Origin: Psychrosphaera sp.
GTDB taxonomy: Bacteria; Pseudomonadota; Gammaproteobacteria; Enterobacterales; Alteromonadaceae
Length of the DNA: 64,000 nt
Assembly: GCA_034111705.1 (NCBI GenBank)
Contig: JAWUWS010000109.1
Coordinates: 1,017 to 65,016, forward strand
Direction of reading: 5' to 3'
The notes beneath the pieces are model-generated. The model worked only from the letters and a program-made list of their open reading frames with translations. It had not been told where the DNA came from and made no database searches. Made by a program: the position numbers and the translations under genes. Positions 27,511 to 56,270 of this stretch are shown one piece after another. The first letter of the stretch is position 1. The number at the start of each line of letters is the position of its first letter.

Positions 27511-27523
27511 GAATAATATATTC
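27511..27523. promoter_or_regulatory. Candidate MurR/RpiR operator upstream of dld
   Basis: GAATAATATATTC, the exact reverse complement of the 13-mer at 48886-48898; may alternatively be part of a terminator hairpin. Confidence 0.45.
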
Positions 27524-27627
27524 TAGCCTTTTTATTTTATTCACTTAAAATCAATCCATATCTATTCGCTTGTTTCATATTTAGTTTCTGGTTACAGAAG
27601 TTGGATCACAGTTAGGAAAGTAACACG

Positions 27628-29328
27628 ATGACGCATCAGCAGTTACAGCAACGACTTGAAGACGTTGTAGGTCAAAGTCAAATTATTATAAATAAACAAA
27701 AATCACGACCGTTTCGTTTTGGTTGGCGAACAGGCGGCGGCGATGCGCTGGCTGTTATAAAACCCCAAAGCTTATTAATGTTTTATCAAGCATTAGAAGT
27801 GTGCGTTAAACACAAAGCTATCATCATTATGCAAGCTGCTAATACAGGCTTAACAGAAGGCTCGACACCTAGCGGTGATGATTACGACAGACCTATAGTG
27901 ATCATTAATACACTGGCAATGGATAAGGTTTATTTGCTAGAACAAGGTCAACAAGTTCTAAGCTTCCCCGGTGCAACTTTATTTAGTTTAGAAAAAAAAC
28001 TGAAATCGATTAAGCGCACACCTCATTCTGTTATTGGTTCTTCATGTTTGGGGGCATCTGTGGTTGGCGGTATTGCGAATAATTCTGGCGGAGCATTAAT
28101 TAAACGTGGGCCTGCTTACACAGAGATGGCGTTGTTTGCCAAAGTAACAGAACAAGGTGAGTTACAGCTAGTAAATCACTTAGGTATTGAATTAGGTGAA
28201 ACGCCAGAACAAATGTTAACTAACTTAGCAAATGGTAATTTTACCAAAGACAACTTAATGTCGAGTGATGCAAAATGTTCGGATACCGAATATCAACAAC
28301 GAGTTCGTCAAGTTAATGAAGACAGCCCAAGTCGTTTTAATGCCGACCCAAGGCGGTTATTTGAAGCCAGTGGGTGTGCAGGTAAGTTAGCGGTTTTTGC
28401 GGTTAGGTTAGATACGTTTGAAGTTGCTGAGCAGGAACAAACATTTTATCTCGGCACTAATGATCCCTTAGTATTAGGCAGATTTAGACGAGACGTTTTA
28501 CAAAAGTATCAAAATCTGCCTGAAGTTGGTGAGTACTTACATAAAGATATTTTTGATGTGTCAGCTAAATACGGTAAAGATACTTTTTTGAGCGTAAAAC
28601 ACCTAGGTACAGATCGCCTACCAAAACTGTTTGCTTTGAAAGCTAGAGTGGATGGTTTGTGTAAATCACTGCCTTTTGTATCTAGTCATTTAACTGATTG
28701 GGTTATGCAGCTGGCCAGTCTTTTTTTTCCACAACATTTGCCTTCACGTATTTTGCAATATAGAGCTAAATACGATCACCATCTGATTTTGAAAATGAGT
28801 GGGCAAGGAATAAAAGAGGCTAAGACTCATTTGTCCCATTTTTTTGCAGAGCATGAAGGCGACTTTTTTGAATGTGATGCAAAAGAAACCGAAGCCGCAG
28901 TACTAAATCGTTTTGCTGCTGCGGGTGCTGCAATGCGTTATCACACTTTATACCAAGAAGATGTTGGTGATTTATTGTCTTTGGATATTGCATTAAGACG
29001 AGATGATATTGATTGGTTAGAGCAACTGCCAGAAGACTTAGATCAGCAATTAGAAATGAAGCTTTATTATGGTCACTTTTTCTGTCACGTATTCCACCAG
29101 GACTATATTCTGAAAAAAGGATCCGATCCTAAAAAAGTAAAAAACAGAATGCTTGAGTTGTTAAATCAACGTGGTGTTAAGTATCCAGCAGAGCATAATG
29201 TCGGGCATTTATATGAAGCAGAACAAACGTTAAAAGACTTTTATCTAACACTCGACCCAACCAATACGTTTAACCCAGGTATTGGTAAGACCGACAAACA
29301 TCAACGTAATTGCAGTTGTCAGCATTAG
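27628..29328 (+). CDS. dld: FAD-dependent (quinone) D-lactate dehydrogenase
   Basis: IMQAANTGLTEGSTP, PHSVIGSSC, ASGCAGKLAVFAVRLDTF, YYGHFFCHVFHQDY, YPAEHNVGHLY, FNPGIGKT match E. coli-type Dld. Confidence 0.96.
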   Translation: MTHQQLQQRLEDVVGQSQIIINKQKSRPFRFGWRTGGGDALAVIKPQSLLMFYQALEVCVKHKAIIIMQAANTGLTEGSTPSGDDYDRPIVIINTLAMDKVYLLEQGQQVLSFPGATLFSLEKKLKSIKRTPHSVIGSSCLGASVVGGIANNSGGALIKRGPAYTEMALFAKVTEQGELQLVNHLGIELGETPEQMLTNLANGNFTKDNLMSSDAKCSDTEYQQRVRQVNEDSPSRFNADPRRLFEASGCAGKLAVFAVRLDTFEVAEQEQTFYLGTNDPLVLGRFRRDVLQKYQNLPEVGEYLHKDIFDVSAKYGKDTFLSVKHLGTDRLPKLFALKARVDGLCKSLPFVSSHLTDWVMQLASLFFPQHLPSRILQYRAKYDHHLILKMSGQGIKEAKTHLSHFFAEHEGDFFECDAKETEAAVLNRFAAAGAAMRYHTLYQEDVGDLLSLDIALRRDDIDWLEQLPEDLDQQLEMKLYYGHFFCHVFHQDYILKKGSDPKKVKNRMLELLNQRGVKYPAEHNVGHLYEAEQTLKDFYLTLDPTNTFNPGIGKTDKHQRNCSCQH

Positions 29329-29452
29329 TCTGGTTATAACAAACAGCTTGGTTCACAACTATTAATCGAATCTAGTAGCGTTCAGTCTAATAGCGTAAAG
29401 CTAACTAACATATTACGAGCATTCATTTACCTAACAAAAAAATGCGCTTAAT

Positions 29453-30229
29453 TTAAAGCGCTGGTAAGCCCCACTCAGCTTGCTTTTTCTTGTACTCATC
29501 TTTTGGTAACGCTAAGTAGCGAGGATTTTTCTCTGGCTTTAACCAAGCAAGTAATTGATCCATTTTAGGCTCTTCCATTGATGTGCAACCAGCAGTAGGA
29601 ACTTCTGGTCCAAACCATAAATGCAAGAAAATACAGCTGCCTTTGTCACTAATGTTTTCTGGGTTATGGTCTAACACTATGCCTTTTTTATAAATGCTTT
29701 GACCTTCTTTGTGAATGTCTCGGCGCATTGGTTCAGTTGAGCCTTCAACTGCTTCTTTACCTACTGTATTTTCGTCAACAATTTGGTTGTACAAAGGGGA
29801 TTGATTGACATCCATACAATAATGGTTGGCTGACATAGGTTGGTATGGCATATCTGTAACTGCGTCAGGTAAATAACCAAAGGTAGTGCTTAAATCGAAT
29901 ATTCCTGCTGTGGCTTTTCCGTCCCCTTCTTTTTTATAATACCCAGTCTGGGTAGGGTGAAGACCTAAACCCCATGCCAATCCAGTACGACCTAAATTAA
30001 CAGGGAAAGCCGAAGCTACTTCTTGCCAAGTATCATTAATCCATTCAAATTTTTGCAGCGTTGCGGTTGTGGCATCCCAATCGTCGGATACCACTACAAC
30101 TAATTGTTTGGTGTTCAGGCTCTGTAACAAAGGTTGAGCCTTGTCAGGTTTTGAGTCGCAAGCGCTGAGTAAACTGGTTAATAACATTAGCGTTCCCATA
30201 ACGGTGTAACGTGAATTTAAAAAGGCCAT
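29453..30229 (-). CDS. YkuD/L,D-transpeptidase-like lipoprotein
   Basis: Lipobox LSAC, KKEGDGKATAGIF, catalytic GSCIFLH...PTAGC. Confidence 0.82.
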   Translation of the reverse strand: MAFLNSRYTVMGTLMLLTSLLSACDSKPDKAQPLLQSLNTKQLVVVVSDDWDATTATLQKFEWINDTWQEVASAFPVNLGRTGLAWGLGLHPTQTGYYKKEGDGKATAGIFDLSTTFGYLPDAVTDMPYQPMSANHYCMDVNQSPLYNQIVDENTVGKEAVEGSTEPMRRDIHKEGQSIYKKGIVLDHNPENISDKGSCIFLHLWFGPEVPTAGCTSMEEPKMDQLLAWLKPEKNPRYLALPKDEYKKKQAEWGLPAL

Positions 30230-31320
30230 ACTAGTTCCTGTAAATTGTTAATGTTTTCAATACCAAGACCTGCGCCTTGGCCTAATTTAATGTTAGATAA
30301 GCTAAAATCAACGCCTCCAACTACTGGATCATATTGTCCTAATGCGGGTCCATCTAAGTCGATTAAAGAGATACTTGATGATTTTGCGACCGCTAAGTGA
30401 GCTGCTGCAGCAACACTAACACTGCCTTCTAACATACAACCTATCATGCAAGGAATGTTATGTAACTCTGCTAAATCAGCAATTTTAATTGCTTGGCTTA
30501 GTCCTGCACATTTCATTAATTTAATATTAATAATATCGGCAGCGCCAGTGCGGATTAAATGTAAAACTTGTTGCGGTGAAAATGCACTTTCATCAGCCAT
30601 AACTGCGGTGGTGATACGTTCGCTTATATAACGTAAACCATTAAGGTCGTTACTTTTTACTGGCTGTTCGATTAATTCTAGCTCAACACCCAAGTTTTCT
30701 AATTTTTGGATAGCATAAACAGTTTGTTTAGCTGTCCAACCTTGGTTAACGTCTAATCTAATAATGGCTCGTTTAGCAACATCTTGATAGATTGAATGTA
30801 CTCGTTCTATGTCGTTCTCTATATCGGTACCAATTTTAATTTTTAATGTATCGAAGCCTTGTTTTATAGCGAGATTAACGTCTGTCAGCATTTTGTCTAT
30901 ATGATCAACACTGATGGTTACATCTGTTGTTAGCTGAGGTGTACCGCCACCTAACATTTTATACAAAGGCGCATCAAAACGCTTAGCCCATAAATCGTAA
31001 ATAGCTATTTCAACAGCAGCTTTGGCACTACTGTTGGCAACAATAGCATGTTGGATTTTATGACAAATTGCATTTAGATTTTCAACGTCCATTCCAATAA
31101 TGTGCGGTGCGATAACATTGGTAATTGCATAGCACACTGACCCATGAGTATCACCTGTGATGACTGGAGTTGCTGGAGCCGCGCCGTAACCTAATACTCC
31201 TGTATCGGTTTCTACTATTACCACAAGATCAGTAATACTTTGTACCGTACGCATGGCTGTTTTAAACGGAGTAACTAACGGAACTTCTAATTTTGCAAAA
31301 CGGATTGCTGTGATCTTCAT
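30217..31320 (-). CDS. L-Ala-D/L-Glu dipeptide epimerase (enolase superfamily, YkfB/YcjG type)
   Basis: PFKTAMRTV, LKIKIG, LDVNQG, IEQP, MADES, NIKLMK, GCMLE, DLD motif; no signal peptide. Confidence 0.92.
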   Translation of the reverse strand: MKITAIRFAKLEVPLVTPFKTAMRTVQSITDLVVIVETDTGVLGYGAAPATPVITGDTHGSVCYAITNVIAPHIIGMDVENLNAICHKIQHAIVANSSAKAAVEIAIYDLWAKRFDAPLYKMLGGGTPQLTTDVTISVDHIDKMLTDVNLAIKQGFDTLKIKIGTDIENDIERVHSIYQDVAKRAIIRLDVNQGWTAKQTVYAIQKLENLGVELELIEQPVKSNDLNGLRYISERITTAVMADESAFSPQQVLHLIRTGAADIINIKLMKCAGLSQAIKIADLAELHNIPCMIGCMLEGSVSVAAAAHLAVAKSSSISLIDLDGPALGQYDPVVGGVDFSLSNIKLGQGAGLGIENINNLQELVWPF

Positions 31321-31325: not shown

Positions 31326-32762
31326 TTAGTGGCCTTCAACATTGTTGAGAGTAAGACGCTTAATATTATAAATTTTATCTATATACGTTGTGGTTTCGTT
31401 TAAATGTAAAGTGATCAAAGGGGTCACAGAAACGGCGTTTAATACACCTTCATAAAACTCACCTTCTGGTGTCCAATAAGCTAAGCCTTTTACATCATGA
31501 ATAACAACAGGTTGATTGTTCTCTTGTCCTAAATAAACCATAACATGACCAGGAATATAGATAAGATCACCAATTTGTAATTTCTCTATTACCGCCATTT
31601 TACTCGCACGGTCGCTATTCTTATCAAAGCGGAAATTAGTACCGTATTTACCATTACCTTGTTGGCCAGAGTTACGAGGCATTAGGATGCCAAAGGTTTT
31701 ATATATCTCACCAACAAAACCAGTACAATCACGTCCGTTGTAATCGTGACCCCAGCCGTAGCGTTCGCCTAAAAATTTGAAAGCTTGGGCTATTACGTTT
31801 TCTGGAGTGTATTCTAAGTAACCTTTTTGAACATCTTGAGTACGACCAATTAACGCGACTTTGATGCTAAGGCTACCGTCTTTATTTCGTACAGGTAGTT
31901 TTACTTCATAACTGCCGGCTGTGCTTTGACCATATAATTCACCATGTTGTTCAGTGCTGCTTAATAATGGAATTTTAACGCCCATGTCTAATTGTACTTG
32001 TGATATCTCTGGTTCATTAGGCACATAACTAGTCAGTACTTTTGCCCCTGAAATTAGTAAGAAGTCTTGGTGATTTAAATATGTTTGTATTTCTTGTTTA
32101 TCACCAATAGCAATGTCACTGCGCTGCACCCAAGCTAAGTAATTGTAGTTTTGTACTAACAGCCATTTACCGTCAGTACTTATATGTAAAATCGCTACTG
32201 GTTCTGTTGGAAATACACCGGTTTCTTGAAAACGGTCTAAATCAAAATCCATTCCTTTGTTAAACACACGATCTAAAGTAGGGAAGGTTCGTAGTGCAGA
32301 GCGTTGAGTCACTAGGCCAAATTGCACTTTATTGTTATCTTTAACTCCCTGAATATTCAGATTGTCAGTGTAAACTTTGAACTCTTGGGCTGTAAGCTGA
32401 GCACCATTTTCATAAAAACGAGCACTTTTAGGAATGCTGCTAATACTTTGAATTTTAGCAATTAGTTCATTTTTACTGAAATTATTTGGTGTTGTTAATG
32501 GCTTTACCACATGAGGGTCAGTGTCAAACAATTGCTGGTTGAAGGCAGCGATATCTTTATTTTTCATCGACATAACCCCGTTATTATCTAGTTTATTTTG
32601 CCAGTGTTGAGCATTTAGTTGCTGGCTTGTGATCTCTGTAATTGTTTTATTATTTGTAGTGACACTACTACAAGCACTTAGTGCTGATAATAAAATGAGA
32701 CATTGTAAATTGCGATAAAGTTTGTGAGTTTTATGTGTTTGTTTTTTCACTATATTTAACAT
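31326..32762 (-). CDS. SH3-containing NlpC/P60 lipoprotein (YkfC-like gamma-D-Glu-diamino acid endopeptidase)
   Basis: Lipobox LSAC, DRFQET SH3 region, YGWG...RDCTG, PRNS, PGHV...IHD catalytic residues. Confidence 0.9.
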   Translation of the reverse strand: MLNIVKKQTHKTHKLYRNLQCLILLSALSACSSVTTNNKTITEITSQQLNAQHWQNKLDNNGVMSMKNKDIAAFNQQLFDTDPHVVKPLTTPNNFSKNELIAKIQSISSIPKSARFYENGAQLTAQEFKVYTDNLNIQGVKDNNKVQFGLVTQRSALRTFPTLDRVFNKGMDFDLDRFQETGVFPTEPVAILHISTDGKWLLVQNYNYLAWVQRSDIAIGDKQEIQTYLNHQDFLLISGAKVLTSYVPNEPEISQVQLDMGVKIPLLSSTEQHGELYGQSTAGSYEVKLPVRNKDGSLSIKVALIGRTQDVQKGYLEYTPENVIAQAFKFLGERYGWGHDYNGRDCTGFVGEIYKTFGILMPRNSGQQGNGKYGTNFRFDKNSDRASKMAVIEKLQIGDLIYIPGHVMVYLGQENNQPVVIHDVKGLAYWTPEGEFYEGVLNAVSVTPLITLHLNETTTYIDKIYNIKRLTLNNVEGH

Positions 32763-32993
32763 GGTAATAACTCATTTTTGTTGTAGTCGAGATATGAATT
32801 TAAAACTGAACCTATGCTTACTGCAGTAACTGCTTAGATCTGCGAAACATCTACTATGCGGTAATTGAGCAGACTTATCTATTAAATCTACACATTCCCA
32901 ATAACGCTTAATAACAAAATTTACATTCCGTTCTTCTGATATCAGTCGCGTTGCAATATAAATAGTTTATTGCTGTTCATTATTTATCTCGTG

Positions 32994-33039
32994 TAATATT
33001 ATATTCCTTGAGTTTTAGTATAAATAGAATAATTATTTC
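32994..33039. promoter_or_regulatory. Two candidate MurR/RpiR boxes in the divergent nlpC/DUF819 promoter
   Basis: TAATATTATATTC (32994-33006) and GAATAATTATTTC (33027-33039), 33 bp apart. Confidence 0.5.
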
Positions 33040-33181
33040 AACAAGAGTTATTTTTAAAAGTGAAAAAATAGTTTTATCTATTTCTGACGTTTAAGACAAA
33101 TAGTATTCAGCATCGTTTTGCGTTGTCGTTTGAATTATTTCTACTGCAATGCAGCGGTTTGTTAAATCAAGGAACATCATT

Positions 33182-34348
33182 TTGATCACCAGTTCATTTA
33201 TCTACGTTACTGCTTTATTCGTTATTGCTGGAAGTTTAAAACTTCTGGAAACTTCCACAAGGTGGCGTTTATTTGAGTATTTACCAGCCGTTGTGTCTCT
33301 ATATTTTGTGGTGATGCTGTGCTCTACATTTGGGGTATGGGAAAAGACGGAAGAGATCACCAACGCCTATAAAATGTTACGGAATAATTTACTGCCTGCG
33401 ATGATATTTTTGATGTTGCTTGATGCTGACTTAAGACAAATCAAACAACTAGGAGGTCGTGTATTACTCGCGTTTTTCATTGCTGCTATAAGTATCGGTG
33501 TGGCTTTTGTATTGGCTTTTACTGTATTTCAACATTACTTACCGGCCGACGCATGGAAAACGCTTGCTGCATTAAGCGGTAGTTGGATGGGTGGCACGGG
33601 TAATATGGTCGCGATTCAGTTGGCATTAGATGTACCTGACACGAGTATGGGTTATACCTTGTTAATAGACTCAATTGATTACGCGTTATGGGTTATGTTT
33701 TTACTAGCTTTAGTGCCCCATGCTAAACGGTTTAACAAATGGGTAAAAGCCGACAGCGAATTGTTAAAACAAATAGGTGCCAACATTAATATAGAAAAAG
33801 AACAGAAACCGGTAGATGCGGGTAACTTGTTAATCTTGTTAGCGTCGGCTTTGTTAGTGTCTGCTTTAGCCCAAAGTACTGCACTATGGTTGCCTACTTC
33901 GGCTTATTTCACAACAACGGCTTGGACTGTATTACTTGTGACGCTTGCTGGTGTCATTGGCGCATTAACACCGTTAGGAAAAATGGCTGGAGCCAGCCAA
34001 TTGTCTATGCTGATGTTGTATTTAATAATTGCTTTGATAGCGTCACGTGCAAACTTAGCCGAACTTACCCAAGCACCAATATATATTTTGTTAGGGTTAA
34101 TGATTTTGCTGTTTCATGGCGTCATTATGTTGATTATGGCGAAATGGTTAAAGTTAGACTTATTTACTTGTGGTGTAGCTTCCCTTGCGAATATTGGTGG
34201 TGTTGCTTCTGCGCCTATTTTAGCTGCATCTTATTCAAAGTCACTCATTCCTGTTGGAGTGTTAATGGCAATGATAGGGTATATTGTTGGAACTGGTGGC
34301 GGTTTGCTGGTTGGTAAGGCGTTGTCGTTTATTGCATCTTACAGTTAA
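33182..34348 (+). CDS. DUF819-family integral membrane protein (candidate transporter)
   Basis: About 10-11 TM segments with GSWMGGTGNM and ASLANIGG motifs typical of DUF819; TTG at 33182 has an AGGA RBS. Confidence 0.85.
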   Translation: MITSSFIYVTALFVIAGSLKLLETSTRWRLFEYLPAVVSLYFVVMLCSTFGVWEKTEEITNAYKMLRNNLLPAMIFLMLLDADLRQIKQLGGRVLLAFFIAAISIGVAFVLAFTVFQHYLPADAWKTLAALSGSWMGGTGNMVAIQLALDVPDTSMGYTLLIDSIDYALWVMFLLALVPHAKRFNKWVKADSELLKQIGANINIEKEQKPVDAGNLLILLASALLVSALAQSTALWLPTSAYFTTTAWTVLLVTLAGVIGALTPLGKMAGASQLSMLMLYLIIALIASRANLAELTQAPIYILLGLMILLFHGVIMLIMAKWLKLDLFTCGVASLANIGGVASAPILAASYSKSLIPVGVLMAMIGYIVGTGGGLLVGKALSFIASYS

Positions 34349-34444: not shown

Positions 34445-36022
34445 CTAGAGCTTTGTAAAGTCTAAATCTTGGAAGTCATAACTGAAATCAATATTTTTTG
34501 ATGCAGGTAATAGGGTCATTCCGGTGACGTTTCCTTGTTTGTCGCGTTTAAAGTTAATAATTGCGTCAGCTTCCAAACTACGATCGTCCCAACGTATTAG
34601 TAAACTATCTTTACTGTTGTGCAGATATAAATCCCCAACAAATTTTTCAACGCGTAATGAACGAATACGTAAGTTTGCTTCTTTATCTTGTGTGCTTGGT
34701 TCAATAATAAATTGTCCTAGCCATGCATCTTGATAAGTACCAATATAGGCGTTTAATTCAGAACTGGATGTATTCGTTAGAACATACTTTTGGGTTAGTT
34801 CATGTGATGCATTAGATACCGGTTTATTCACTGGCTTTTTAGGTGCAAATATCGCGAGCCAATCTGTATTGCCATCTCCTAAATACGGTTTCATTACGGT
34901 GTACATTAAGGCACTACGAGCTGCGCTTGATTGTTGGTTAGTTAACACAACAAAGCCTAAATCTAACTCTGGAAACAAGCTAACAAAAGAATACATGCCA
35001 GCTAAACTGCCAGTGTGGTGTACTTGTAAATAACCGTCTATGTCATTAATACGCCAACCTAATCCATAAGCACTAAGATGGGTATTGTCTAAACGTTTAC
35101 TGCGGGAAGACACAGGCATTATGGTATGCGGCGTCCACATCATTTTATGCTGAGCTTTTGAAAATAGCGCGTTATCGTTTGTTATTTGACCTTGGTTAAG
35201 CTGAACTTTCACCCATTTAAGCATGTCGTTGAGACTACATTGTATGCCTCCAGCTGGTGCTGAAACACTTGGTTTATCGGGATCAATAGGGCGGATAATA
35301 GTTTGTAATTTTCCATCAACAATACCGTGAGGTGTCGCAATGTTATTTTGTTTTTGTAAACTGACATTACCAGCAAAGCAATGTTGCATGGACAAAGGTT
35401 GTATGATTTTTTGTTCCACAAACTCTTCCCAACTTTTTCCTGTTACGGCTGGGATAATTTCACTGGCGACGATATAAAGTAGATTGTCATAGGCGTAGTC
35501 AGCTCTAAATTCGCCCGTTGGTTTTAGGTGACGTAAATTATGTAAGACTTGTCGGCGAGTAAAACTCGACGGCTCAGGCCACAACATTAAGTCGCCAGCA
35601 CCTAAACCTAGACCACTACGATGAGTGAGTAAGTCTATTATATTAAAGTGCTCCGTGACCCAAGGGTCGTGCATTTTAAAATTGGGTAAATAATCAAGGA
35701 CTTTACCTTCCCAGCTAAGCTTTCCTTCATCCACTAAAATCGCTAAAGCTGCAGCGGTAAAAGCTTTTGTGTTTGAAGCTATTTTAAAAATACTATTACT
35801 ATCTACAAAATCATCACTACCTATGGTTTTAACACCAAAACCTTGAGCTGCAATTACTTTCCCATCCTTTACGACACCAATCGCTGCGCCAGGAATTTGT
35901 AATTGTTGCATGATCTTTTGTATTTTTTTCTCGTTCAAAGTCGAACTCTCCACATTGGTGGATACACTTAATCCAATTGTTAATATGCAGCAGATTAAAA
36001 GTTTAGATAATACATGTAACAT
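34445..36022 (-). CDS. Exported serine hydrolase, beta-lactamase/AmpC fold with C-terminal DUF3471-like domain
   Basis: Signal peptide, FKIASNTK (SxxK), LLTHRSG, YDN, HTG. Confidence 0.88.
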   Translation of the reverse strand: MLHVLSKLLICCILTIGLSVSTNVESSTLNEKKIQKIMQQLQIPGAAIGVVKDGKVIAAQGFGVKTIGSDDFVDSNSIFKIASNTKAFTAAALAILVDEGKLSWEGKVLDYLPNFKMHDPWVTEHFNIIDLLTHRSGLGLGAGDLMLWPEPSSFTRRQVLHNLRHLKPTGEFRADYAYDNLLYIVASEIIPAVTGKSWEEFVEQKIIQPLSMQHCFAGNVSLQKQNNIATPHGIVDGKLQTIIRPIDPDKPSVSAPAGGIQCSLNDMLKWVKVQLNQGQITNDNALFSKAQHKMMWTPHTIMPVSSRSKRLDNTHLSAYGLGWRINDIDGYLQVHHTGSLAGMYSFVSLFPELDLGFVVLTNQQSSAARSALMYTVMKPYLGDGNTDWLAIFAPKKPVNKPVSNASHELTQKYVLTNTSSSELNAYIGTYQDAWLGQFIIEPSTQDKEANLRIRSLRVEKFVGDLYLHNSKDSLLIRWDDRSLEADAIINFKRDKQGNVTGMTLLPASKNIDFSYDFQDLDFTKL

Positions 36023-36031
36023 CAGATGTTC

Positions 36032-38536: not shown

Positions 38537-38571
38537 CTAGAATAAATAATTATTACAATAAGAATAATAAG

Positions 38572-44948: not shown

Positions 44949-44957
44949 TAAACGCCC

Positions 44958-45248: not shown

Positions 45249-45303
45249 AACACTTATCACATAAAAAATAATCAACACAAAATACATGAAATTCATTGAT
45301 TTA

Positions 45304-45328
45304 GCAAATGAGAATGATTACCATTTGC
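45304..45328. promoter_or_regulatory. Fur box
   Basis: GCA-AATGAGAATGATTACCATT-TGC; the 19-mer matches the AATGAGAATnATTnTCATT consensus, with palindromic flanks, between divergent iron-uptake-type genes. Confidence 0.85.
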
Positions 45329-45368
45329 AAGTCAATCGAATTAATAACTCATCTCAAAGTGGAAAAAA

Positions 45369-47854: not shown

Positions 47855-48781
47855 CTAAATCAATTTTACATCAACCGCTTTTCGTAAAAAGCCCTTATTT
47901 TGTTGTAATAGTAATTTAGCTTCTTGTGCATTTGTGCCGGCTAGTATCATCATAATCGCAACCTTAGCCTCACTATTTGCTGCTTTTAATGCATTAGATG
48001 CCGTTTGCTCATCACATTCTGTTGCTTGCATAACAATGAGTACTGCCCTTGCATATAACTTTTTATTACTCGCGTTTACATCAACCATTAAATTTTGATA
48101 GGTTTTGCCTATTTTAATCATGCTAGCGGTACTGAGCATGTTAAGAATTAATTTTTGTGCAGTCCCTGATTTCATACGAGTAGAACCGGTTAACACTTCA
48201 GGTCCAACTGCAGCACAAATATCTACATTGGCTTCTTTACCAATAGGGGAATTAGGGTTGCAACTAACCGCAACTGATTTGGCACCAATAAGATTAGCAT
48301 ATTGCAAGGCTGAAATAACATAAGGGGTTCGGCCACTGGCGGCAATACCAACTAACACGTCTTTTTCGTTAAAGTTAACGGCTTTTAAATCTTCAAATGC
48401 GGCTTCTTTATCATCTTCTGCACCTTCAACTGCGACTTTTATGGCTTTTTCACCGCCCGCAATAATAGCAATAACCATGTCCTTTTCCACACTGAATGTT
48501 GGAATGCATTCAACGGCATCTAGAATACCTAAACGGCCACTTGTCCCTGCACCTAAATAGATTAATCGACCTCCACGGTTAAAGGTTTCAACAATTGTAT
48601 CTACGGCAACTGCGATATTAGGTAACGCTTGTTGAACAGCAAGTGCTACTTTTTGATCTTCATCATTAATTTTTTGCAAAATGTCAGCTGTGGACAATAA
48701 ATCAATATTTACAGTTTCAGTATTACGCATTTCTGACAAAATCGTATTTAGTTCACTTAAAAGTAAATTATTATTCATCAC
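47855..48781 (-). CDS. murQ: N-acetylmuramic acid 6-phosphate etherase
   Basis: [54 protein letters not shown]. Confidence 0.97.
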
Positions 48782-48883: not shown

Positions 48884-48900
48884 AAGAATATATTATTCTT
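48884..48900. promoter_or_regulatory. Candidate MurR/RpiR operator in the murQ/alr divergent promoter
   Basis: AA-GAATATATTATTC-TT near-perfect 17-bp palindrome. Confidence 0.6.
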
Positions 48901-49010
48901 TAAATGTTGTACATAAGAAATAATAATTGATTATTATTACTCGAATGGTTTATTGTCTTGTGTAAAGGTGCGTTAGTACTTATCGATACTATTAATTTAA
49001 GAGTAACAAA

Positions 49011-50090
49011 ATGAAGGTATTTGGAAGGTGTACTCATGCTGAGATAAATATTGCAGCTGTAGTTGATAATTTTAAACAAATATCAGCGTTAGCCCCCAAT
49101 AGCCAAACGTTAGCTGTTATTAAAGCCGATGCATATGGCCATGGTGCAGTACCGATTGCTCAAGCGTTATCAAAGAACGCAGAAGCCTTTGCAGTTGCTT
49201 TTATAGATGAGGCTGTACATTTACGAGAGCATGCGATTGTTCAACCAATTTTGCTACTTGAAGGGGTTATGAGCGAACCTGAAATGCTATTAGCCTATGA
49301 ACTCGACCTTTGGGTTATGTTACATACTAAAGAACATTTTGAATGGTTACGTAATTTGACACCAACGCAGCGGCCAAAAGTATGGATAAAAGTCGATACT
49401 GGTATGCATCGATTAGGAATTGAATTAACCGAGGTTGAATCAATTCTAGCTGAGTTTAATGAATTACTAACTCCCTCAACGGTATTATGCAGCCATTTAG
49501 CCTGTGCGGATGAAAAGTATAATCAAGCGAATGTCTTGCAAACAAATCAGTTAGAAAAATTAGCCTTGGCTCATGGCTTGCCGTTTAGCCTAGCCAATTC
49601 AGCTGGGATACTAGAGTGGCCTAATACTTATGGAGCTTGGAATCGTTTAGGAATAGCGTTGTACGGGTCTTCATTGATCAATACTAAAGAGCTAATGTTA
49701 CAACCTGTGATGAAAGTTACAGCACCCATTATTGCTTTGAGAACATTGGAAAAGGGTGAATGTGTTGGCTATGGACAAAGTTGGACTGCTCAGCGTAAGA
49801 CCATAATTGCTACGGTCGCAATAGGTTACGCAGATGGCTACCCTCGTCACGCCCGTGTAGGTACTCCAGCTTGGTTACATGATAAAAAAGTGCCCTTAGT
49901 TGGACGGGTGTCCATGGATATGATCACGTTTGATGTTACCGACATTGGCCAAGTTAAAGTAGCGGACAATATAGAACTTTGGGGGGAGCATGTATCAGTT
50001 GAAGAAGTGGCTGAATGCGCTTCAACTATTTCTTACGAGTTATTAAGTAGGTTATCTCCAAGGGTTAAACGTTCTTATATTAATAATTAA
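49011..50090 (+). CDS. alr: Alanine racemase
   Basis: AVIKADAYGHG PLP lysine, KVDTGMHRLG, GYADGYPR, GRVSMDM. Confidence 0.96.
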   Translation: MKVFGRCTHAEINIAAVVDNFKQISALAPNSQTLAVIKADAYGHGAVPIAQALSKNAEAFAVAFIDEAVHLREHAIVQPILLLEGVMSEPEMLLAYELDLWVMLHTKEHFEWLRNLTPTQRPKVWIKVDTGMHRLGIELTEVESILAEFNELLTPSTVLCSHLACADEKYNQANVLQTNQLEKLALAHGLPFSLANSAGILEWPNTYGAWNRLGIALYGSSLINTKELMLQPVMKVTAPIIALRTLEKGECVGYGQSWTAQRKTIIATVAIGYADGYPRHARVGTPAWLHDKKVPLVGRVSMDMITFDVTDIGQVKVADNIELWGEHVSVEEVAECASTISYELLSRLSPRVKRSYINN

Positions 50091-50165
50091 TTACATCTTC
50101 TAGAAACAGGAAGTGTAATTTTGAATAAACGTTACGTTTTGTATTTAAATTGTTTTGGTAGGGTT

Positions 50166-51380
50166 ATGCATTCACATATTGAACAGTTACATCATATTTC
50201 TAACAAAGAGTCACGGTTAATTATTGGCCTAATGAGTGGTACGTCTTTAGATGGATTGGATATTGCCCTTTGTAAAATGAGTCATTCCGGTACCCAAACT
50301 GAGTGTGAATTATTGGGTTTTACCACAATCGATTACTGCGATGATTATCGACAGCATGTTAAAGGTATATTTGCGAAATCTGTTGGTAGCATTGAACATG
50401 TGTGTATGTTGAATGCATGGATTGGACGTTATCACGCTAAATTAGTAAATCAGGCGATTCAACAATTTGGTTATCAAAATGCCGACATTGATGTGATTGC
50501 CAGTCATGGTCAAACGATTTACCACAGCCCAATAGAGCAACATCAATATCAAGAATTCCCCAACGCTACTTTACAAATAGGGGATGGCGATCATATTGCT
50601 GTATTAACGAATATCATTACCTTAAGTGATTTTAGACAAAAGCACATTGCCGCTGGAGGTCAAGGTGCACCACTTGTTATGTATGGTGATTACTTGTTGT
50701 TTCATAGTCTTGATGAAAATCGCATTATGCTTAATATCGGTGGCATAGCTAATTTAACTTATTTGCCAAGTAAAGATTGTGTATCCAATATATTTAGTTC
50801 AGATATAGGACCTGGAAATACAATAATGGATGCATTTGTGCAGAGCCATTATTCAGGCCTGCATTATGATAAAGATGCAGCAATTGCCAGTGCAGGTAAA
50901 GTGCATCAAGGTTTACTCAACGGACTTTCAGATTCATCGTTTTTTTCACAAGCTCTACCAAAAACAACAGGCCCTGAGGTGTTTAATTTAACTTATTTAC
51001 AGACGGCACAAACAAAAGCTAAAGCACAAGGTTTGTCGGATGAAGATATTATGGCAACCCTTTGTGAATTTAGTGCGCAGTGCATCGCCGACAGTATTAT
51101 TTTGCTTGGAAAAGGATTACCCAATTTAATGGTTTATGTTAGTGGAGGAGGTATCCATAATCCTTTATTGATGGATCGGATCAAGGTGAAGCTGAACAAA
51201 AGCTTACCTCAGTCTCAAATTGGAACGACAGGCTTATTAGCGTTAGACCCAGATGCGAAAGAGGCGGTGTTGTTTGCTCTTTTAGCTAATGAAACGTTAT
51301 GTGCAAATACAGAAACATTACCTCCAGATCAAACAAATATGCCCAACGTTAGTATGGGGAAAATCAGCTTTCCCGCTTAA
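50166..51380 (+). CDS. anmK: Anhydro-N-acetylmuramic acid kinase
   Basis: IGLMSGTSLDGLD, SHGQT, DFR...AGGQGAPL, NIGGIAN, DIGPGN, PKTTGPE, KEA; ATG at 50166. Confidence 0.96.
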   Translation: MHSHIEQLHHISNKESRLIIGLMSGTSLDGLDIALCKMSHSGTQTECELLGFTTIDYCDDYRQHVKGIFAKSVGSIEHVCMLNAWIGRYHAKLVNQAIQQFGYQNADIDVIASHGQTIYHSPIEQHQYQEFPNATLQIGDGDHIAVLTNIITLSDFRQKHIAAGGQGAPLVMYGDYLLFHSLDENRIMLNIGGIANLTYLPSKDCVSNIFSSDIGPGNTIMDAFVQSHYSGLHYDKDAAIASAGKVHQGLLNGLSDSSFFSQALPKTTGPEVFNLTYLQTAQTKAKAQGLSDEDIMATLCEFSAQCIADSIILLGKGLPNLMVYVSGGGIHNPLLMDRIKVKLNKSLPQSQIGTTGLLALDPDAKEAVLFALLANETLCANTETLPPDQTNMPNVSMGKISFPA

Positions 51381-51443: not shown

Positions 51444-52496
51444 ATGAATCAGCTCATCACATTTAGTCATCCGCCTTCTAACGCTATTGTTGGCTGTGCT
51501 TCAACGACATTAACAGAACATGAAATAACGTTGTTTAAACGAATGCGTCCTTTGGGACTTATTTTGTTTGCACGCAATATTACAGATCCTAAACAAGTCA
51601 GCGCACTTGTCGATGAGTTTAAATTTATCACTGATAATCAATATGCATTGATCTTAATTGACCAAGAAGGTGGTCGAGTATCACGGTTACCTGAACCGCA
51701 TTGGCGTAGACCGCCAAGTCCTACAGAATTTGCCAAATTGTATAAACACGCTCCCGAGGCAGCCATTCGTGCATGTGAAATTAATTATCAGTTAATTGGT
51801 GCTGACTTAAAACGTATTGGCGTTAATGTCGATTGTGCGCCTATGTTAGATATTCCACAGCCTGATGCTTCTACTGTTGTAACAGACAGAGCATTAGGCG
51901 ATACACCTGAAAGTGTTATTGCTTTAGGTCAGGCGACTATTAACGGTTTGCAACTTAGCGGAGTGGAACCTGTTATAAAACATGGTCCTGGTCATGGACG
52001 TGGAACAAAAGACAGTCACAAAGCTTTACCTGTTGTAGACGCAGGTATGGAAGCGCTTGCGAAATGGGACTTCTTACCTTTTCAACACTTTAAACACGAA
52101 TCTATGTTAATGACGGCACATATTCTTTATACCGCTATAGATGCTGAACTTCCTGGGACCTTAAGTCCTAAAGTTATAAACGAAGTGTTAAGAAGATATA
52201 TTGGTTTTGATGGTCTTATAATGACCGATGATATTGATATGCATGCCTTAACAGGAAGTACCGCAGAAAAGGCGCAACAAGCACTAAATGCAGGTTGCGA
52301 CATCGTGTTGCAGTGCAGTGGTAATATTGATGATTTATTGTCTCTTGAATCTGCGATACAACCATTGTCGGGTAAAGCACTTAAACGTGCTGAAATCGCC
52401 GCTACAAAGTCAGCGTTACAACAAAAAGATATTGATAGTGTTGCACTATTAGCTGAACTGTCAGAGCTTTTATCAAAAGGAAACGAGTCACCATGA
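51444..52496 (+). CDS. nagZ: GH3 beta-N-acetylhexosaminidase
   Basis: ILFARN, IDQEGGRV, KHGPGHG...DSH, MTAH, TDDIDM; no signal peptide. Confidence 0.93.
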   Translation: MNQLITFSHPPSNAIVGCASTTLTEHEITLFKRMRPLGLILFARNITDPKQVSALVDEFKFITDNQYALILIDQEGGRVSRLPEPHWRRPPSPTEFAKLYKHAPEAAIRACEINYQLIGADLKRIGVNVDCAPMLDIPQPDASTVVTDRALGDTPESVIALGQATINGLQLSGVEPVIKHGPGHGRGTKDSHKALPVVDAGMEALAKWDFLPFQHFKHESMLMTAHILYTAIDAELPGTLSPKVINEVLRRYIGFDGLIMTDDIDMHALTGSTAEKAQQALNAGCDIVLQCSGNIDDLLSLESAIQPLSGKALKRAEIAATKSALQQKDIDSVALLAELSELLSKGNESP

Positions 52497-54106
52497 TTGA
52501 CCAATATACTGGGTTAGATGTAGCTGTTTTTGCATTGTATTTTCTAATATTACTGATCACAGGTTATATATTTAACCGACGTGCGAAAAACTCGAATGAT
52601 TATTTTTTAGGTGGTAACAATATGTCGATTTGGGTAGTGAGTATTTCGGTACTCGCTACGTCGCAGTCTGCTGCTACGTTTCTTGGTGGGCCAGACCAAG
52701 GCTATCGTGGAGATTTAACGTATCTTTCTACAAATATTGCTGGGTTTATAGCTGCTTTTTTTGTAGCTAAATTCTTATTGCCTAGATTTTATGCGCTTAA
52801 AGCCTTTACTGTATATGAGTTACTAGGCAGCCGTTTTGGTGATAATGCAAAATATCAAGCGGGTATGGTTTATTTGTTTGGTCGTTTGTTTGCCAGTGGC
52901 GCTAGACTATTTATGGCAGCAATCGCAGTTTCAATGATCTTATTTGGCGATGTTGAACCAAGCTCTGTTTCTATCGCTATCTGTATTATTTCGGTGGTAG
53001 GTTTTACTTACACCGTTTACGGTGGCATTCGTACCGTTATTTATTCAGATGTTGTGCAATGTGTTATTTATGTTGGAGCCGCGGTGCTTGTTCTTTGGCA
53101 TCTTATGCAGTCAATCCCACTCAGTACTGGAGAAATCATAAATGTATTGCAGTCACCGGGTGTTGACCAATCATCTAAGCTGACATTTATTGATTTTACA
53201 GTCGACTTTACTAGTTCTGGCGTTTTTAATATTTGGTCAATTCTGACTGGTTTTGTGTTGTTAAATATCGCCGCTTTTGGTCTTGATCAAGACGTAACTC
53301 AACGCATGTTGACGTGCAAAGATGCAAAAAGTGCGACTAAAGCGCTTGTTTCATCAATTATTATGGGCATTCCAATTGTTTTAGTGTTCGTTTGTATTGG
53401 CTTGCTGCTTTTCATTTTTTATCAACGTCCAGATATTATGGCTCAAGCGGCTGGTGGAGCACCCATTCCTGAATTTGAAGGACAAACGGTTACCATCTTT
53501 ATGTATTATGTTTTAACCAGTTTACCTAATGGAATTAAAGCGGTTGTTACTATAGGTATTGTGGCTGCAGCATTATCGACTCTTAATTCAGGTTTGAATT
53601 CAATGTCGTCGGTGGCAGTGCAGGATATTTATCGTGGCTGGTACAAAAAGGGTGTGGCCATCAGTGAAGATAAGTTAGTGAACATAGGTCGCTGGTCTAT
53701 GGGAATAGTGGCAGTTGCACTTAGTTGTGTTGCGCTACTTTGTTATTACTGGCAGCAATATACTGACACACCTCTTTTAGCCTTTGCTTTAAGTGTCATG
53801 GTGTTTTCATATAGTGGTCTTTTAGGTATATATTTCACTGCGTTATTTTCTGAGCGTGGAAGTCCGGGTTCTATTGTTAGCGCTTTGCTGGTTGGCTTTG
53901 CAACTCCAATGTTAATGCAACCATATATCCAGTCTTTGTATTTACCAGAGTCATGGCAATTTGATTTGGCCTTCACATGGCAATTGGTTGTTGGTACTGC
54001 AATATCTACGTTAGTTTGTTTATCAAGAAAGAATAATCATATTCAGCCGCAAAGTATTTCTAAAGATGATCTCAGCAGCTCTCAGCCAATTAAAGGAACA
54101 GTATAA
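52493..54106 (+). CDS. Sodium:solute symporter (SSS family)
   Basis: DYFLGG, SAATFLG, YGGIRTVIYSDVVQ, DQDVTQR, AAALST; about 13 TM segments. Confidence 0.93.
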   Translation: MIDQYTGLDVAVFALYFLILLITGYIFNRRAKNSNDYFLGGNNMSIWVVSISVLATSQSAATFLGGPDQGYRGDLTYLSTNIAGFIAAFFVAKFLLPRFYALKAFTVYELLGSRFGDNAKYQAGMVYLFGRLFASGARLFMAAIAVSMILFGDVEPSSVSIAICIISVVGFTYTVYGGIRTVIYSDVVQCVIYVGAAVLVLWHLMQSIPLSTGEIINVLQSPGVDQSSKLTFIDFTVDFTSSGVFNIWSILTGFVLLNIAAFGLDQDVTQRMLTCKDAKSATKALVSSIIMGIPIVLVFVCIGLLLFIFYQRPDIMAQAAGGAPIPEFEGQTVTIFMYYVLTSLPNGIKAVVTIGIVAAALSTLNSGLNSMSSVAVQDIYRGWYKKGVAISEDKLVNIGRWSMGIVAVALSCVALLCYYWQQYTDTPLLAFALSVMVFSYSGLLGIYFTALFSERGSPGSIVSALLVGFATPMLMQPYIQSLYLPESWQFDLAFTWQLVVGTAISTLVCLSRKNNHIQPQSISKDDLSSSQPIKGTV

Positions 54107-55122
54107 TGTCACAATCTCTAATGGCTCAAGAAGCCTTACAAACGCCAAAAAAAATAGCGGATCAACTTGACCAGAATCAAAATAGAGTAAAAGCGATTGT
54201 TGAAGGAATAAAAACGTTTGCTCCTAAGTCCGTTATGATAATTGGACGAGGTTCATCGGATCATGCCGGCGTATACGCAAAATATTTAATAGAGACTGAA
54301 CTTGGTATCCCTGTTTCTGCTGCCGCACCCTCAGTGAGTACGTTATTTGGTAAAACCCTTAAGTTAGACACTACGCTAGTGATTTGTATTTCACAGTCAG
54401 GAAGAAGTCCTGACATTTTGCATCAAGTTGAAAAAGCCAAGCAAACCGGTGCGTTTTGTTTAGCATTAGTAAATGACGAGTCATCACCTTTAGCTGAACT
54501 AGCCAATGAAGTATTACCACTTCAAGCTGGTCCTGAAAAAGCGGTTGCAGCAACTAAAAGCTTTTTATGTACGCTAAGCGCTATCGTATCGCTTGTTGCT
54601 ACTTGGTCAGGATCCTCGGAGTTATTAGCTGGATTACAACAATTACCAAAACAGTTAGAGAATGTTGTAAAACAGCCTCCTCAATTAACGTTTGATGCAT
54701 TGGATAATGTGAAGCATTGCGTGGTATTAGGACGTGGGTTTGGTTATGCAATAAGTCGAGAGCTAGCCCTTAAACTGAAAGAGGTATGTGGTATTCATGC
54801 TGAGTCATTTAGTAGTGCAGAGTTTTTGCACGGGCCTATCACGCTTGTGGCGAAAAAGCTGATGTTAATTGATATAGAAATTGCAGACGAAACCTTTATA
54901 CATCATAAAAAACAAGTCGATGAAGTCATCAGTAGAGGCGGAGATGTCATTAGTTTAAAAGTAAAACAAGACAATATATCTGAAAGCGATAAAATACATA
55001 AACGTTTGGCTCCATTAGCTATAATGTTACGTTTTTATCTTGATATTGAACAGGTTGCACAACAAATGGGATTAAACCCAGATGAACCTGTAGGTTTGAA
55101 TAAAGTGACACAAACTCTTTAA
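54106..55122 (+). CDS. nagB-II: SIS-domain glucosamine-6-phosphate deaminase (NagB-II type)
   Basis: GRGSSDHA, ISQSGRSPD, GPEKAVAATKS, ALKLKEV, AEFLHGP, LNKVTQTL; no glutaminase domain. Confidence 0.88.
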   Translation: MSQSLMAQEALQTPKKIADQLDQNQNRVKAIVEGIKTFAPKSVMIIGRGSSDHAGVYAKYLIETELGIPVSAAAPSVSTLFGKTLKLDTTLVICISQSGRSPDILHQVEKAKQTGAFCLALVNDESSPLAELANEVLPLQAGPEKAVAATKSFLCTLSAIVSLVATWSGSSELLAGLQQLPKQLENVVKQPPQLTFDALDNVKHCVVLGRGFGYAISRELALKLKEVCGIHAESFSSAEFLHGPITLVAKKLMLIDIEIADETFIHHKKQVDEVISRGGDVISLKVKQDNISESDKIHKRLAPLAIMLRFYLDIEQVAQQMGLNPDEPVGLNKVTQTL

Positions 55123-55154
55123 TTGGCATAATACAAATAACAGGTGCTTTGAAT

Positions 55155-56270
55155 ATGACATGGTTTTGCGCAAAACAGTTTTTTGATGGTGTTGATTTAC
55201 ATACGGATCATTACTTTCAAGTAAGAAGCGGTGTTATTTCATCTGTTTCAAGTGAGCCTGTTACTTGTGATGTGCACATAGATGGTCTGGTTACTCCAGG
55301 CTTTGTTGATACACAAGTGAATGGTGGAGGTGGGGTATTATTTAACCAAGCTCCAACAGCACAATCACTTAGGACTATGTTTAAAGCTCATCAACAGTTT
55401 GGCACAACGGCAATGACGCCAACCTTGATCACCGACAATCTCAATGTTATGCAACACGCAGCTGATGCGATAGCAGAAGCTATATCAGAGGAAATGGAAG
55501 GAATTGTAGGAGTCCATTTTGAAGGTCCTCACTTAAGCATAGCTAAACGTGGAATTCATCCATCTGATCAAGTACGTGCTATGACCGATGCCGAGCTTAA
55601 GCTGGTCACACGTAAGGATTTAGGTAAAGTATTGTTAACTGTTGCACCTGAAAATGTTAGCCCTGATGTTATAAAAGACTTAGTAAACGAAGGTGTAATT
55701 GTTGCCTTGGGTCATTCAAATGCCGATTTTGATACCGTTTTGGCTGCAATAGATGCAGGCGCCACGGGTGCAACACATTTATTTAACGCTATGTCTGGTT
55801 TACAAGCTAGAACGCCTGGATTAATTGGTGCTGCATTAGACGATGAACGTATTACTGCTGGCTTGATAGTGGACTTGTTACATGTACACCGCACAAACTG
55901 CCGTTTAGCGTTTAAGGCTAAATCAGCAAAAGGCATTATGTTAGTAACGGATGCAATGGCGCATGTCGGTTGTGATTTAGTGTCTTTACCTTGGTTGGAC
56001 TCAACGATTATCAGAGACGGTAATAAGTTAACCACACCAGATGGTACGTTGGCTGGCTCTTGCCTTGATATGATCTCTGCCGTTAAGCAATCACATCAGA
56101 TATTGGGGATTACTTTACAGGATGCTCTGCACAGTGCCACACAAGTTCCGGCTAAGTTTCTAGGATTAAATGATGTTGGTCATTTACAAGTAGGGGCTAA
56201 AGCTGACTTTTTAGTTATTGATAAACATGTAAATATTGAGCGGATTTATCAAGCCGGTAAGTTAGTTTAA
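55155..56270 (+). CDS. nagA: N-acetylglucosamine-6-phosphate deacetylase
   Basis: PGFVDTQVNGGGG, HFEGP, GHS, THLFNAM, VTDAM, LAGS; ATG at 55155 (TTG at 55149 alternative). Confidence 0.96.
   Translation: MTWFCAKQFFDGVDLHTDHYFQVRSGVISSVSSEPVTCDVHIDGLVTPGFVDTQVNGGGGVLFNQAPTAQSLRTMFKAHQQFGTTAMTPTLITDNLNVMQHAADAIAEAISEEMEGIVGVHFEGPHLSIAKRGIHPSDQVRAMTDAELKLVTRKDLGKVLLTVAPENVSPDVIKDLVNEGVIVALGHSNADFDTVLAAIDAGATGATHLFNAMSGLQARTPGLIGAALDDERITAGLIVDLLHVHRTNCRLAFKAKSAKGIMLVTDAMAHVGCDLVSLPWLDSTIIRDGNKLTTPDGTLAGSCLDMISAVKQSHQILGITLQDALHSATQVPAKFLGLNDVGHLQVGAKADFLVIDKHVNIERIYQAGKLV

Follow-up and report, generated by a model that had tools for sequence, protein, structure and literature searches.

This analysis concerns a gene block in a 64,000-nucleotide stretch of DNA from Psychrosphaera sp. 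(contig JAWUWS010000109.1), which we call the window. The block is real and conserved. Judging from its genes and their control sites, it is likely an inducible regulon that imports soluble foreign muropeptides and burns them for carbon, nitrogen, and energy. The window is contig C109 (G000:C109) of a 2.62-Mb genome that is 71% complete. Below, G numbers label relative genomes, L numbers fetched loci, and C numbers contigs of the window's own genome (G000).

An earlier sequence-only reading had claimed a single ~29 kb block with an outer-membrane TonB receptor, a cytoplasmic sugar route (NagZ, AnmK, MurQ, NagA, and NagB-II), two non-ABC inner-membrane transporter candidates, and an RpiR regulator. 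All the genes it named are intact among the 19 open reading frames (ORFs) at 27628-56270, and Pfam and NCBIfam confirmed their families, including the transporter candidates as DUF819 and sodium:solute symporter (SSS) proteins. It missed a second TonB receptor, which lies in a 4.4-kb iron-uptake-like insert. The features are listed in the table. The block is flanked by a type II secretion operon on one side and by yrfG-nudE-cysQ on the other.

Linkage and predicted shared operator of the block

Full-length orthologues of the main receptor were found in 31 of 150 genomes of the family (43-85% identity); the remaining receptor matches in the family covered the N-terminal part only, at 27-34% identity. 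Up to 20 kb per side was fetched for all 31 orthologues, with some contigs being shorter. At least one peptidoglycan-catabolic gene lies within 20 kb of 28 of the 31, and at least two in 26, in many orders and orientations. Within 10 kb, such neighbors accompany 27 of the 31 orthologues and 0 of 20 paralogues used as controls. The controls were taken from the 27 weak receptor matches, of which four were dropped along with three that stand in tandem within the locus of an orthologue. The commonest neighbors are the amidase fusion (23/31), NlpC/P60 (22/31), and the epimerase (21/31), and nagB-nagA occurs in only two of 30 receptor loci. The co-occurrence in relatives expected from the sequence-only reading was therefore found, with epimerase, murQ, and DUF819 recurring around the receptor. 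anmK is a variable part, present in 0 of the 30 receptor loci of the family sample. murQ itself is in all 31 carriers compared to 31 of 119 non-carriers, a descriptive comparison among kin that are not independent.

Named receptor homologues come from Paraglaciecola, Thalassotalea, Colwellia, Pseudoalteromonas, Rheinheimera, Neptunicella, Glaciecola, and Kangiellaceae, and the named carrier species are Paraglaciecola mesophila, P. polaris, Thalassotalea profundi, Neptunicella marina, and Pseudoalteromonas shioyasakiensis. Outside the family the receptor turned up in few genomes, namely 1 of 299 sampled at class level and, in an order-level set of 200, three that belong to other families. Full clusters surround it in G388, G464, and G554, and none is on the 6.5 kb contig of G553. 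One full-length homologue clusters with Holophagaceae proteins.

The second line of evidence is a predicted operator of the AGAATAnnnTATTCT type. A matrix was trained on the intergenic stretches that lie upstream of these genes, drawn from 17 loci with the window and G085 left out. Palindromic dyads were enriched in this training set (AATA-3-TATT, 54 vs 3.5 expected; GAAT-5-ATTC, 20 vs 1.6). The matrix reaches at least 9 bits at 17 window positions, 16 of which fall within the five promoter regions of the block. All five regions hold a site of 12.0-18.7 bits, compared to at most 9.9 in the 15 other intergenic regions of the window, and these maxima were reached by 0 to 10 of 1000 shuffles. Genome-wide, seven of the 63 sites of at least 11 bits fall in the block region, which makes up 1.1% of the genome. 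The held-out test gave 10.6-18.9 bits upstream of the receptor in 18 of 18 orthologues and at most 9.6 in 19 scorable controls. The held-out hits include G115, G033, and G071, where no wall genes are nearby, so the operator ties the receptor to the block even away from the enzymes. A strict version of the pattern matched in 10 of 41 genomes vs 7 for its reversed control, and thus the pattern alone does not separate carriers. A sigma-70 promoter scan stayed at chance level (42 vs 44.3). Taken together, the sites suggest that the block genes are probably co-regulated.

We infer that the RpiR-family regulator is the protein that pairs with this operator. Five of the six ligand residues mutated in E. 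coli MurR (S146, K159, H171, S190, S192, and K195) are kept, and the lysine that binds the lactyl group in MurR is kept in 30/30 regulator orthologues. The protein scores below the NCBIfam MurR cut-offs (158.6 of 408 bits for NF012026 and 232 of 355 for NF008590).

The receptor was modeled with AlphaFold2 from an alignment of 100 sequences, which gave a plug-and-barrel fold (pLDDT 84.9, pTM 0.86); this model was used instead of a single-sequence one with a pLDDT of 31. Every row listed by Foldseek is a TonB-dependent receptor, the best being YddB (E 1.6e-31) and FusA, at 9-13% identity. We lean toward the view that the receptor founds an undescribed clade of TonB transporters for peptidoglycan fragments, running from Alteromonadaceae to Holophagaceae, and that together with the regulator and operator it forms a mobile regulon for eating the walls of lysed or growing neighbors. 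A second, distant receptor (25-28% identity) of the same architecture stands in tandem with the orthologue in G114, G072, G099, and G059 (L036, L012, L046-L047, and L019).

The gene order of the window is that of G085, except that anmK is missing there. The closest named locus, L064 (Psychrosphaera sp.), has a receptor 83% identical and the same gene order. Among public runs, the best match is a seawater metagenome, and no RNA run was among those listed. Near-identical contigs of the seawater run X1 cover 36001-38996, 41530-43274, 48005-54816, and 54789-56000, an agreement that is not independent, as this run possibly stems from the source sample itself. In run X2, a single contig of low depth passes directly from alr to nagZ without anmK, as in G085 (window 49939-51428; weak, with 20 letters on the short side). 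Short imperfect AAGCTAG repeats lie at 34350-34420, between DUF819 and the serine peptidase. The flanks (1-1528, 16057-26791, and 60952-63624) look ordinary: they hold a further TonB receptor running off the window start, the type II secretion operon, nhaR-nhaA, and a small Rap1a-like protein.

The history of the block fits horizontal transfer. In the MurQ tree, the window copy groups within sequences of g5 and named Paraglaciecola (97/87) and is separate from the copy on C41, and the amidase fusion is placed in the same way, in a quick tree only. Block proteins are 66-88% identical to those of Paraglaciecola sp. L070. For GspE, which flanks the block, identity is 69% to the L070 genome and 93% to two congeners. 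The block is also dispensable, since the congener G040 has lost it except for dld, the PepSY pair, the end of nagB, and nagA. GCTATA-type tandem repeats are found near the left deletion junction there (L130:7040-7130).

Predicted route from muropeptide to central metabolism

In the proposed route, muropeptides would cross the outer membrane through the receptor. Four periplasmic enzymes would then process them: the amidase-PBP4B fusion would detach the sugar from the stem peptide, the D,D- and L,D-peptidases would remove D-Ala, and NlpC/P60 would break down the freed peptide into L-Ala-D-Glu and diaminopimelate (DAP). The dipeptide would enter the cytoplasm via DUF819 and the amino sugar via the SSS symporter. 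Once there, D-residues would be turned into L-residues by the epimerase and Alr, the series NagZ-AnmK-MurQ-NagA-NagB-II would yield fructose-6-P and ammonia from the sugar, and the D-lactate set free on the way would be oxidized by Dld. Control would lie with the MurR-like regulator, which would sit on the operator and come off it as N-acetylmuramic acid 6-phosphate (MurNAc-6-P) builds up.

Table. Annotated and predicted features of the block, in window positions
Feature	Position	Strand	Basis
Predicted operator, 14.1 bits, upstream of dld	27509..27525	.	3/1000 shuffles reach score; one of two strict-pattern genome matches
Dld, FAD-dependent D-lactate dehydrogenase, predicted oxidizer of MurQ-released D-lactate	27628..29328	+	NF008387, 905 bits
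YkuD-like lipoprotein, predicted L,D-peptidase (His203, Cys215)	29453..30229	-	PF03734 E 7e-4, below cut-off; lipobox LSAC
L-Ala-D/L-Glu-type dipeptide epimerase, no signal peptide	30217..31320	-	best PDB match 1jpm (L-Ala-D/L-Glu epimerase), E 1.5e-93
Lipoprotein with SH3b and NlpC/P60 domains, predicted to act on free stem peptides as a gamma-D-Glu-DAP endopeptidase	31326..32762	-	DvLysin 3m1u, E 5.6e-25
Predicted operators, 15.0 and 9.6 bits, between divergent nlpC and DUF819	32992..33041	.	matrix
DUF819 membrane protein (~9 helices), candidate L-Ala-D-Glu or D-amino-acid importer	33149..34348	+	PF05684; substrate predicted
Exported serine D,D-peptidase-like protein (beta-lactamase fold and DUF3471)	34445..36022	-	SxxK, YxN, HTG in 16/16; signal peptide by inspection
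Lipoprotein: AmiD/AmpDh3-type Zn amidase, peptidoglycan-binding domain, PBP4B-type peptidase	36032..38536	-	NF002968, 500 bits, over cut-off
Predicted operator cluster, 15.0, 10.0, 10.6, 9.9, 11.9 bits, between divergent amidase and receptor	38538..38783	.	matrix
TonB-dependent transporter, N-terminal carboxypeptidase-regulatory-like domain, candidate muropeptide importer	38903..41920	+	predicted fold and synteny
RpiR/MurR-like regulator, predicted MurNAc-6-P sensor	42134..42988	+	best PDB match E. coli MurR, E 1.4e-27
Inserted iron-uptake-like module	43314..47741	.	4.4 kb; Fur-box-like site, no block operator
PepSY-TM	43314-44948	-	part of insert
112-aa membrane protein	44958-45296	-	part of insert
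Second, siderophore-type TonB receptor	45369-47741	+	part of insert
MurQ, MurNAc-6-P etherase	47855..48781	-	TIGR00274, 413 bits, over cut-off
Predicted operators, 18.7 (genome best) and 11.3 bits, between murQ and alr	48884..48935	.	matrix
Alanine racemase (Alr)	49011..50090	+	TIGR00492, over cut-off; in 5/31 receptor loci
Predicted operator, 12.0 bits, upstream of anmK	50079..50095	.	10/1000 shuffles reach score
AnmK, second, non-canonical copy	50166..51380	+	PF03702; ORF opens TTG 50121, likely start ATG 50166
Short NagZ-type GH3, no clear signal peptide	51444..52496	+	NF003740, 218 bits, just over cut-off
SSS symporter, candidate (anhydro)MurNAc or disaccharide importer	52493..54106	+	PF00474; substrate predicted
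NagB-II glucosamine-6-P deaminase	54106..55122	+	NF046059, 513 bits, over cut-off
NagA, N-acetylglucosamine (GlcNAc)-6-P deacetylase	55149..56270	+	TIGR00221, over cut-off

Catalytic motifs are present in the block enzymes, and those of NlpC/P60, the amidase-PBP4B fusion, the YkuD-like protein, the serine peptidase, and the epimerase are near-invariant across the aligned orthologues. Three of the hydrolases carry a lipobox and the fourth a hydrophobic signal. By inspection, the N-termini of their orthologues also look like signals, unlike those of the epimerases. The sequence-only reading had claimed four exported wall hydrolases. Their families and export signals held, but their scope is narrower, as all four belong to stem-peptide-acting families and none is glycan-cleaving. 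The lack of an exported glycan-cleaving enzyme in the block suggests that soluble fragments would be used rather than whole sacculi.

The amidase domain is nearest to AmpDh3 (E 4.7e-61) and AmiD (E 4.4e-48), and the Zn and catalytic residues of the fusion are kept in 32/32 sequences. The YkuD-like protein, which has no PDB sequence match, keeps its His and Cys in 16/16 orthologues. Class C beta-lactamases were considered for the serine hydrolases and rejected, since these score far below the cut-offs. The epimerase keeps R24, K160/K162, D190, E218, D243, K267, and D321-x-D323 in 26/26 orthologues, the enolase-superfamily catalytic set with the R24 and DxD of L-Ala-D/L-Glu epimerases, and it scores below the NCBIfam epimerase cut-offs (250 of 500 and 108 of 343 bits). 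Xu et al. report that the exchange A211Y converts DvLysin from a wall lysin to a stem-peptide enzyme (PMC4600125). In the block NlpC/P60, Tyr208 aligns to Ala211 of DvLysin and is Tyr in 26/26 orthologues, and Asn364 sits at the likely Asp position of the YkfC-type Tyr/Asp pair, as in DvLysin A211Y (mapped by sequence alignment only). Tyr208 at this position suggests an enzyme that would act after the amidase and spare the intact wall, which fits soluble substrates. DUF819 adjoins nlpC in 6/30 receptor loci and in G388. The locus also proposes a substrate for DUF819 that can be tested.

A paralogous amidase-PBP fusion lies on C21 (L091, G000:C21:10775-14536). It sits on a very long branch, and its PBP half was searched for SxxK, YxN, and HTG with no match. 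It adjoins an NhaC-family transporter gene whose orthologues recur in 13/30 receptor loci. A 460-aa protein with no Pfam match (L039:10047-11429) recurs near the locus in G070, G081, G112, and G131.

The sugar arm is made of interchangeable parts. In relatives it usually consists of namZ, murQ, a BadF-family kinase, SSS, and a GH3 lipoprotein, with NamZ in 16/31 receptor loci, the BadF-family kinase in 15/31, and SSS in 18/31, mostly next to murQ or its kinase. NamZ and the BadF-family kinase fit non-anhydro MurNAc, with MurK of Tannerella as an example of such a kinase (PMC5790795). The arm anmK-nagZ-sss-nagB-nagA is present in L070. The block AnmK is 33% identical to the copy on C98 and 72% to that of L070, and AnmK of the block type occurs in 28/150 genomes, sometimes next to the same SSS. 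The only BadF kinase found in the genome is fused to MurQ on C41. It belongs to a second wall-sugar cluster of NamZ, the BadF-kinase-MurQ fusion, and a GH3 lipoprotein (L090, G000:C41:5929-11209), which is in all three congeners examined. This cluster may supply the glycan-cutting steps missing from the block.

The sequence-only reading had grouped Dld with Alr and the epimerase as peptide and stereochemistry enzymes. The families were confirmed, but Dld is better read as oxidizing D-lactate, which MurQ releases (PMC9177960). Strain IA91 oxidizes D-lactate from MurNAc-6-P via D-lactate dehydrogenase (PMC11652737). A D-lactate dehydrogenase of either type is in 10/31 receptor loci, and an FAD/Fe-S oxidoreductase read as such an enzyme is in 7/31. 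The latter is presumably the Dld-II type. Since MurQ releases D-lactate, the two unrelated types beside it point to catabolism. Other recurring neighbors are a class IV aminotransferase of the D-amino-acid aminotransferase family (5/31), a D-Ala-D-Ala dipeptidase (5/31), an S66 LD-carboxypeptidase (4/31), and a D-Glu cyclase with carboxyltransferase-domain subunits (4/31). By their family assignments, the catabolic end enzymes recur across related loci as non-homologous substitutes.

The iron-uptake-like insert was rejected as part of the system. It has no block operator, its Fur-box-like site at 45304-45328 is the best match in the window (15/19 to a Fur-box consensus), and its PepSY gene is in one of 30 receptor loci. 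The insert sits at the place of namZ in L070, the closest Paraglaciecola locus. G040 retains the PepSY pair and has lost the siderophore-type receptor.

Own or foreign wall fragments

The sequence-only reading claimed that the block scavenges the murein of other cells. Linkage, the shared operator, and separate housekeeping genes support this claim; the foreign rather than own, leaked origin of the fragments, like every substrate and the transporter assignments, is what we infer. The claim that ampG and mpl are absent from the block is correct, as none of ampG, ampD, and mpl is there, but ampG is present elsewhere in the genome, on C38. ampD (C61), a second anmK (C98, beside an M23-peptidase-like gene), and a second nagZ are also separate, and Mur-ligase-family genes are on C119. 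No mpl turned up in the genome, which is 71% complete, and 5/5 relatives tested have the gene. The search for amgK gave two PF01636 matches with no adjoining murU-like gene in the one locus inspected, which is uninformative at this completeness.

The most serious alternative is that the block recaptures the cell's own turnover fragments as they leak across the outer membrane, or breaks them down in the periplasm in place of AmpG. A similar periplasmic self-recycling path has been proposed for Bacteroides (PMC4600125). Several points weigh for this alternative and against foreign fragments. AnmK and the short NagZ fit anhydro-muropeptides, and the anhydro-MurNAc on which AnmK acts is made by the lytic transglycosylases of own and other cells alike. 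The block has no exported muramidase. A 12.3-bit operator-like site overlaps the start of ampD (L092:1080, G000:C61:11579), although this is within the background range, as is an 11.5-bit site between the divergent C41 genes. ampG was not found in the carriers G072, G081, G114, and G131 (blank at E 1e-5; one genome is 87% complete) and has only a weak match in G115, so the locus may do self-recycling in those four. Five of the 11 genomes with no ampG match are receptor carriers; the others are G050, G093, G006, G056, G135, and G148. The ampG-less genomes that keep murQ or a block-type locus, most of them near-complete, may mark an AmpG-independent recycling route.

The regulon reading faces further difficulties. 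The receptor is missing in 31 of 62 murQ-positive relatives, several of which have the enzyme cluster without it. Thr replaces K195 of MurR in 30/30 regulator orthologues, usually with Lys or Arg adjacent. The operator is AT-rich and has 63 genome sites of at least 11 bits, and related genomes are not independent samples. On the other hand, ampG is in 140 of 151 genomes and in 26 of the 31 carriers, and the ampG, second anmK, and nagZ promoters score only -0.4 to 1.2 bits and therefore have no operator. The end enzymes of the block would destroy units that self-recycling could reuse, and the block itself is distributed patchily, with a congener having deleted it. We therefore consider recapture of own fragments unlikely.

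Another possible explanation is that the receptor belongs to the regulon but carries only part of the cargo, for instance stem peptides in free form or other peptides with D-amino acids, and that the sugars enter via porins or another receptor. The most constant neighbors are indeed the amidase fusion, NlpC/P60, and the epimerase, G149 and G018 have only NlpC/P60 and the epimerase nearby, and some loci have the distant receptor in tandem. However, the amidase is needed only if sugar-peptide units reach the periplasm, and the sugar genes and receptor share the operator, which makes a partial cargo rather improbable. We give very little weight to the idea that the receptor exports a wall hydrolase or anchors it at the surface, as reportedly occurs with Oar and PopC in Myxococcus, or that a GlcNAc operon and wall-remodeling genes came together here by chance. 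The N-terminal domain is indeed the one found in Oar-like receptors, the nearest solved folds are YddB and the ferredoxin receptor FusA, and nagB-nagA is rare in receptor loci, but the operator is shared, the linkage recurs in rearranged orders, the NlpC/P60 is predicted to be of the stem-peptide type, and a type II secretion operon is available upstream.

Comparison with known systems

Almost all bacteria make peptidoglycan. By one published account, no build-up of it is known in marine particulate matter (PMC10877868). In the literature searched, there was no molecular handle on the organisms that remove marine peptidoglycan or on the passage of fragments across the Gram-negative outer membrane. 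If the foreign-muropeptide regulon is real, common marine bacteria would take the walls of their neighbors down to pyruvate, fructose-6-P, and L-amino acids. The locus supplies a transporter candidate, the sequence of a predicted operator, and a gene that can serve as a marker, found in about one-fifth of the family genomes sampled. Full-text searches, with subscription journals, RegPrecise, and supplements outside them, found no TonB-linked peptidoglycan utilization locus described in these bacteria.

All the enzymes come from known families, and some of the logic has precedents in Tannerella, Fidelibacter, E. coli MurR, and the YkfC route. The murTKQ operon of Tannerella forsythia also combines an SSS-family transporter, a sugar kinase, and MurQ for exogenous MurNAc (PMC5790795), and the sss-BadF kinase-murQ-namZ module of relatives shares its families with it, the likeness of SSS to MurT being at the family level. 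The block itself has SSS and MurQ, but its kinase is AnmK instead of a BadF-family one, and a receptor and peptide hydrolases are linked to it. Tannerella is auxotrophic for MurNAc and rebuilds its wall (PMC5790795), whereas the products of the block would go to central metabolism. The parts of that paper drawn on mention neither TonB nor the outer membrane (PMC5790795), and a review merely suggests that Tannerella receptors forage for wall fragments (PMC13764152). Fidelibacter multiformis IA91 uses exogenous muropeptide as a carbon and energy source and oxidizes D-lactate, but it is an anaerobic wall auxotroph of another phylum, and the parts of the paper drawn on describe no TonB or transporters (PMC11652737).

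In E. coli, MurR-murQP with AmpG/AmpD/NagZ/AnmK/MurQ likewise places an RpiR-family regulator next to MurQ and uses the cytoplasmic sugar route (PMC9177960). The block regulator keeps the phosphate- and lactyl-binding residues but has Thr in place of K195 and stays below the NCBIfam MurR cut-off. The block has no phosphotransferase-system transporter MurP, and its five predicted promoter regions include those of an outer-membrane receptor and periplasmic peptidases. With the YkfC/YkfB route and DvLysin it shares an SH3b-NlpC/P60 enzyme, an Ala-Glu epimerase, and the order, predicted for the block, of amidase then endopeptidase (PMC4600125). The block NlpC/P60 differs in joining the DvLysin scaffold to the stem-peptide Tyr and in being linked to a TonB receptor, which the parts of that paper drawn on do not include (PMC4600125).

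The sequence-only reading had likened the block to a polysaccharide utilization locus (PUL). It is not a SusC/SusD PUL of the strict Bacteroidota kind, as there is no SusD-family match among the block proteins and an RpiR regulator follows the receptor. Nor is it a canonical AmpG/AmpD/Mpl self-recycling locus. The likeness survives in another form, that of a locus for carbohydrate utilization with a TonB-dependent transporter (CUT), in which such a transporter stands with enzymes, an inner-membrane transporter, and a regulator. In the block, a TonB-dependent transporter (by its model) and linked enzymes, inner-membrane transporter, and regulator are conserved together. The Xanthomonas and Caulobacter CUT and GlcNAc clusters also have a TonB receptor, an inner-membrane transporter, NagA, NagB, and a regulator and are inducible, but their substrate is GlcNAc or its oligomers, and they lack stem-peptide hydrolases and MurQ in the parts of the source drawn on (PMC13046382). 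The parts of the Shewanella sugar and regulon surveys drawn on mention no murQ, MurR, or peptidoglycan (PMC2996990, PMC3223726). Among these systems, the block is best read as working as a CUT-type utilization locus for peptidoglycan fragments.

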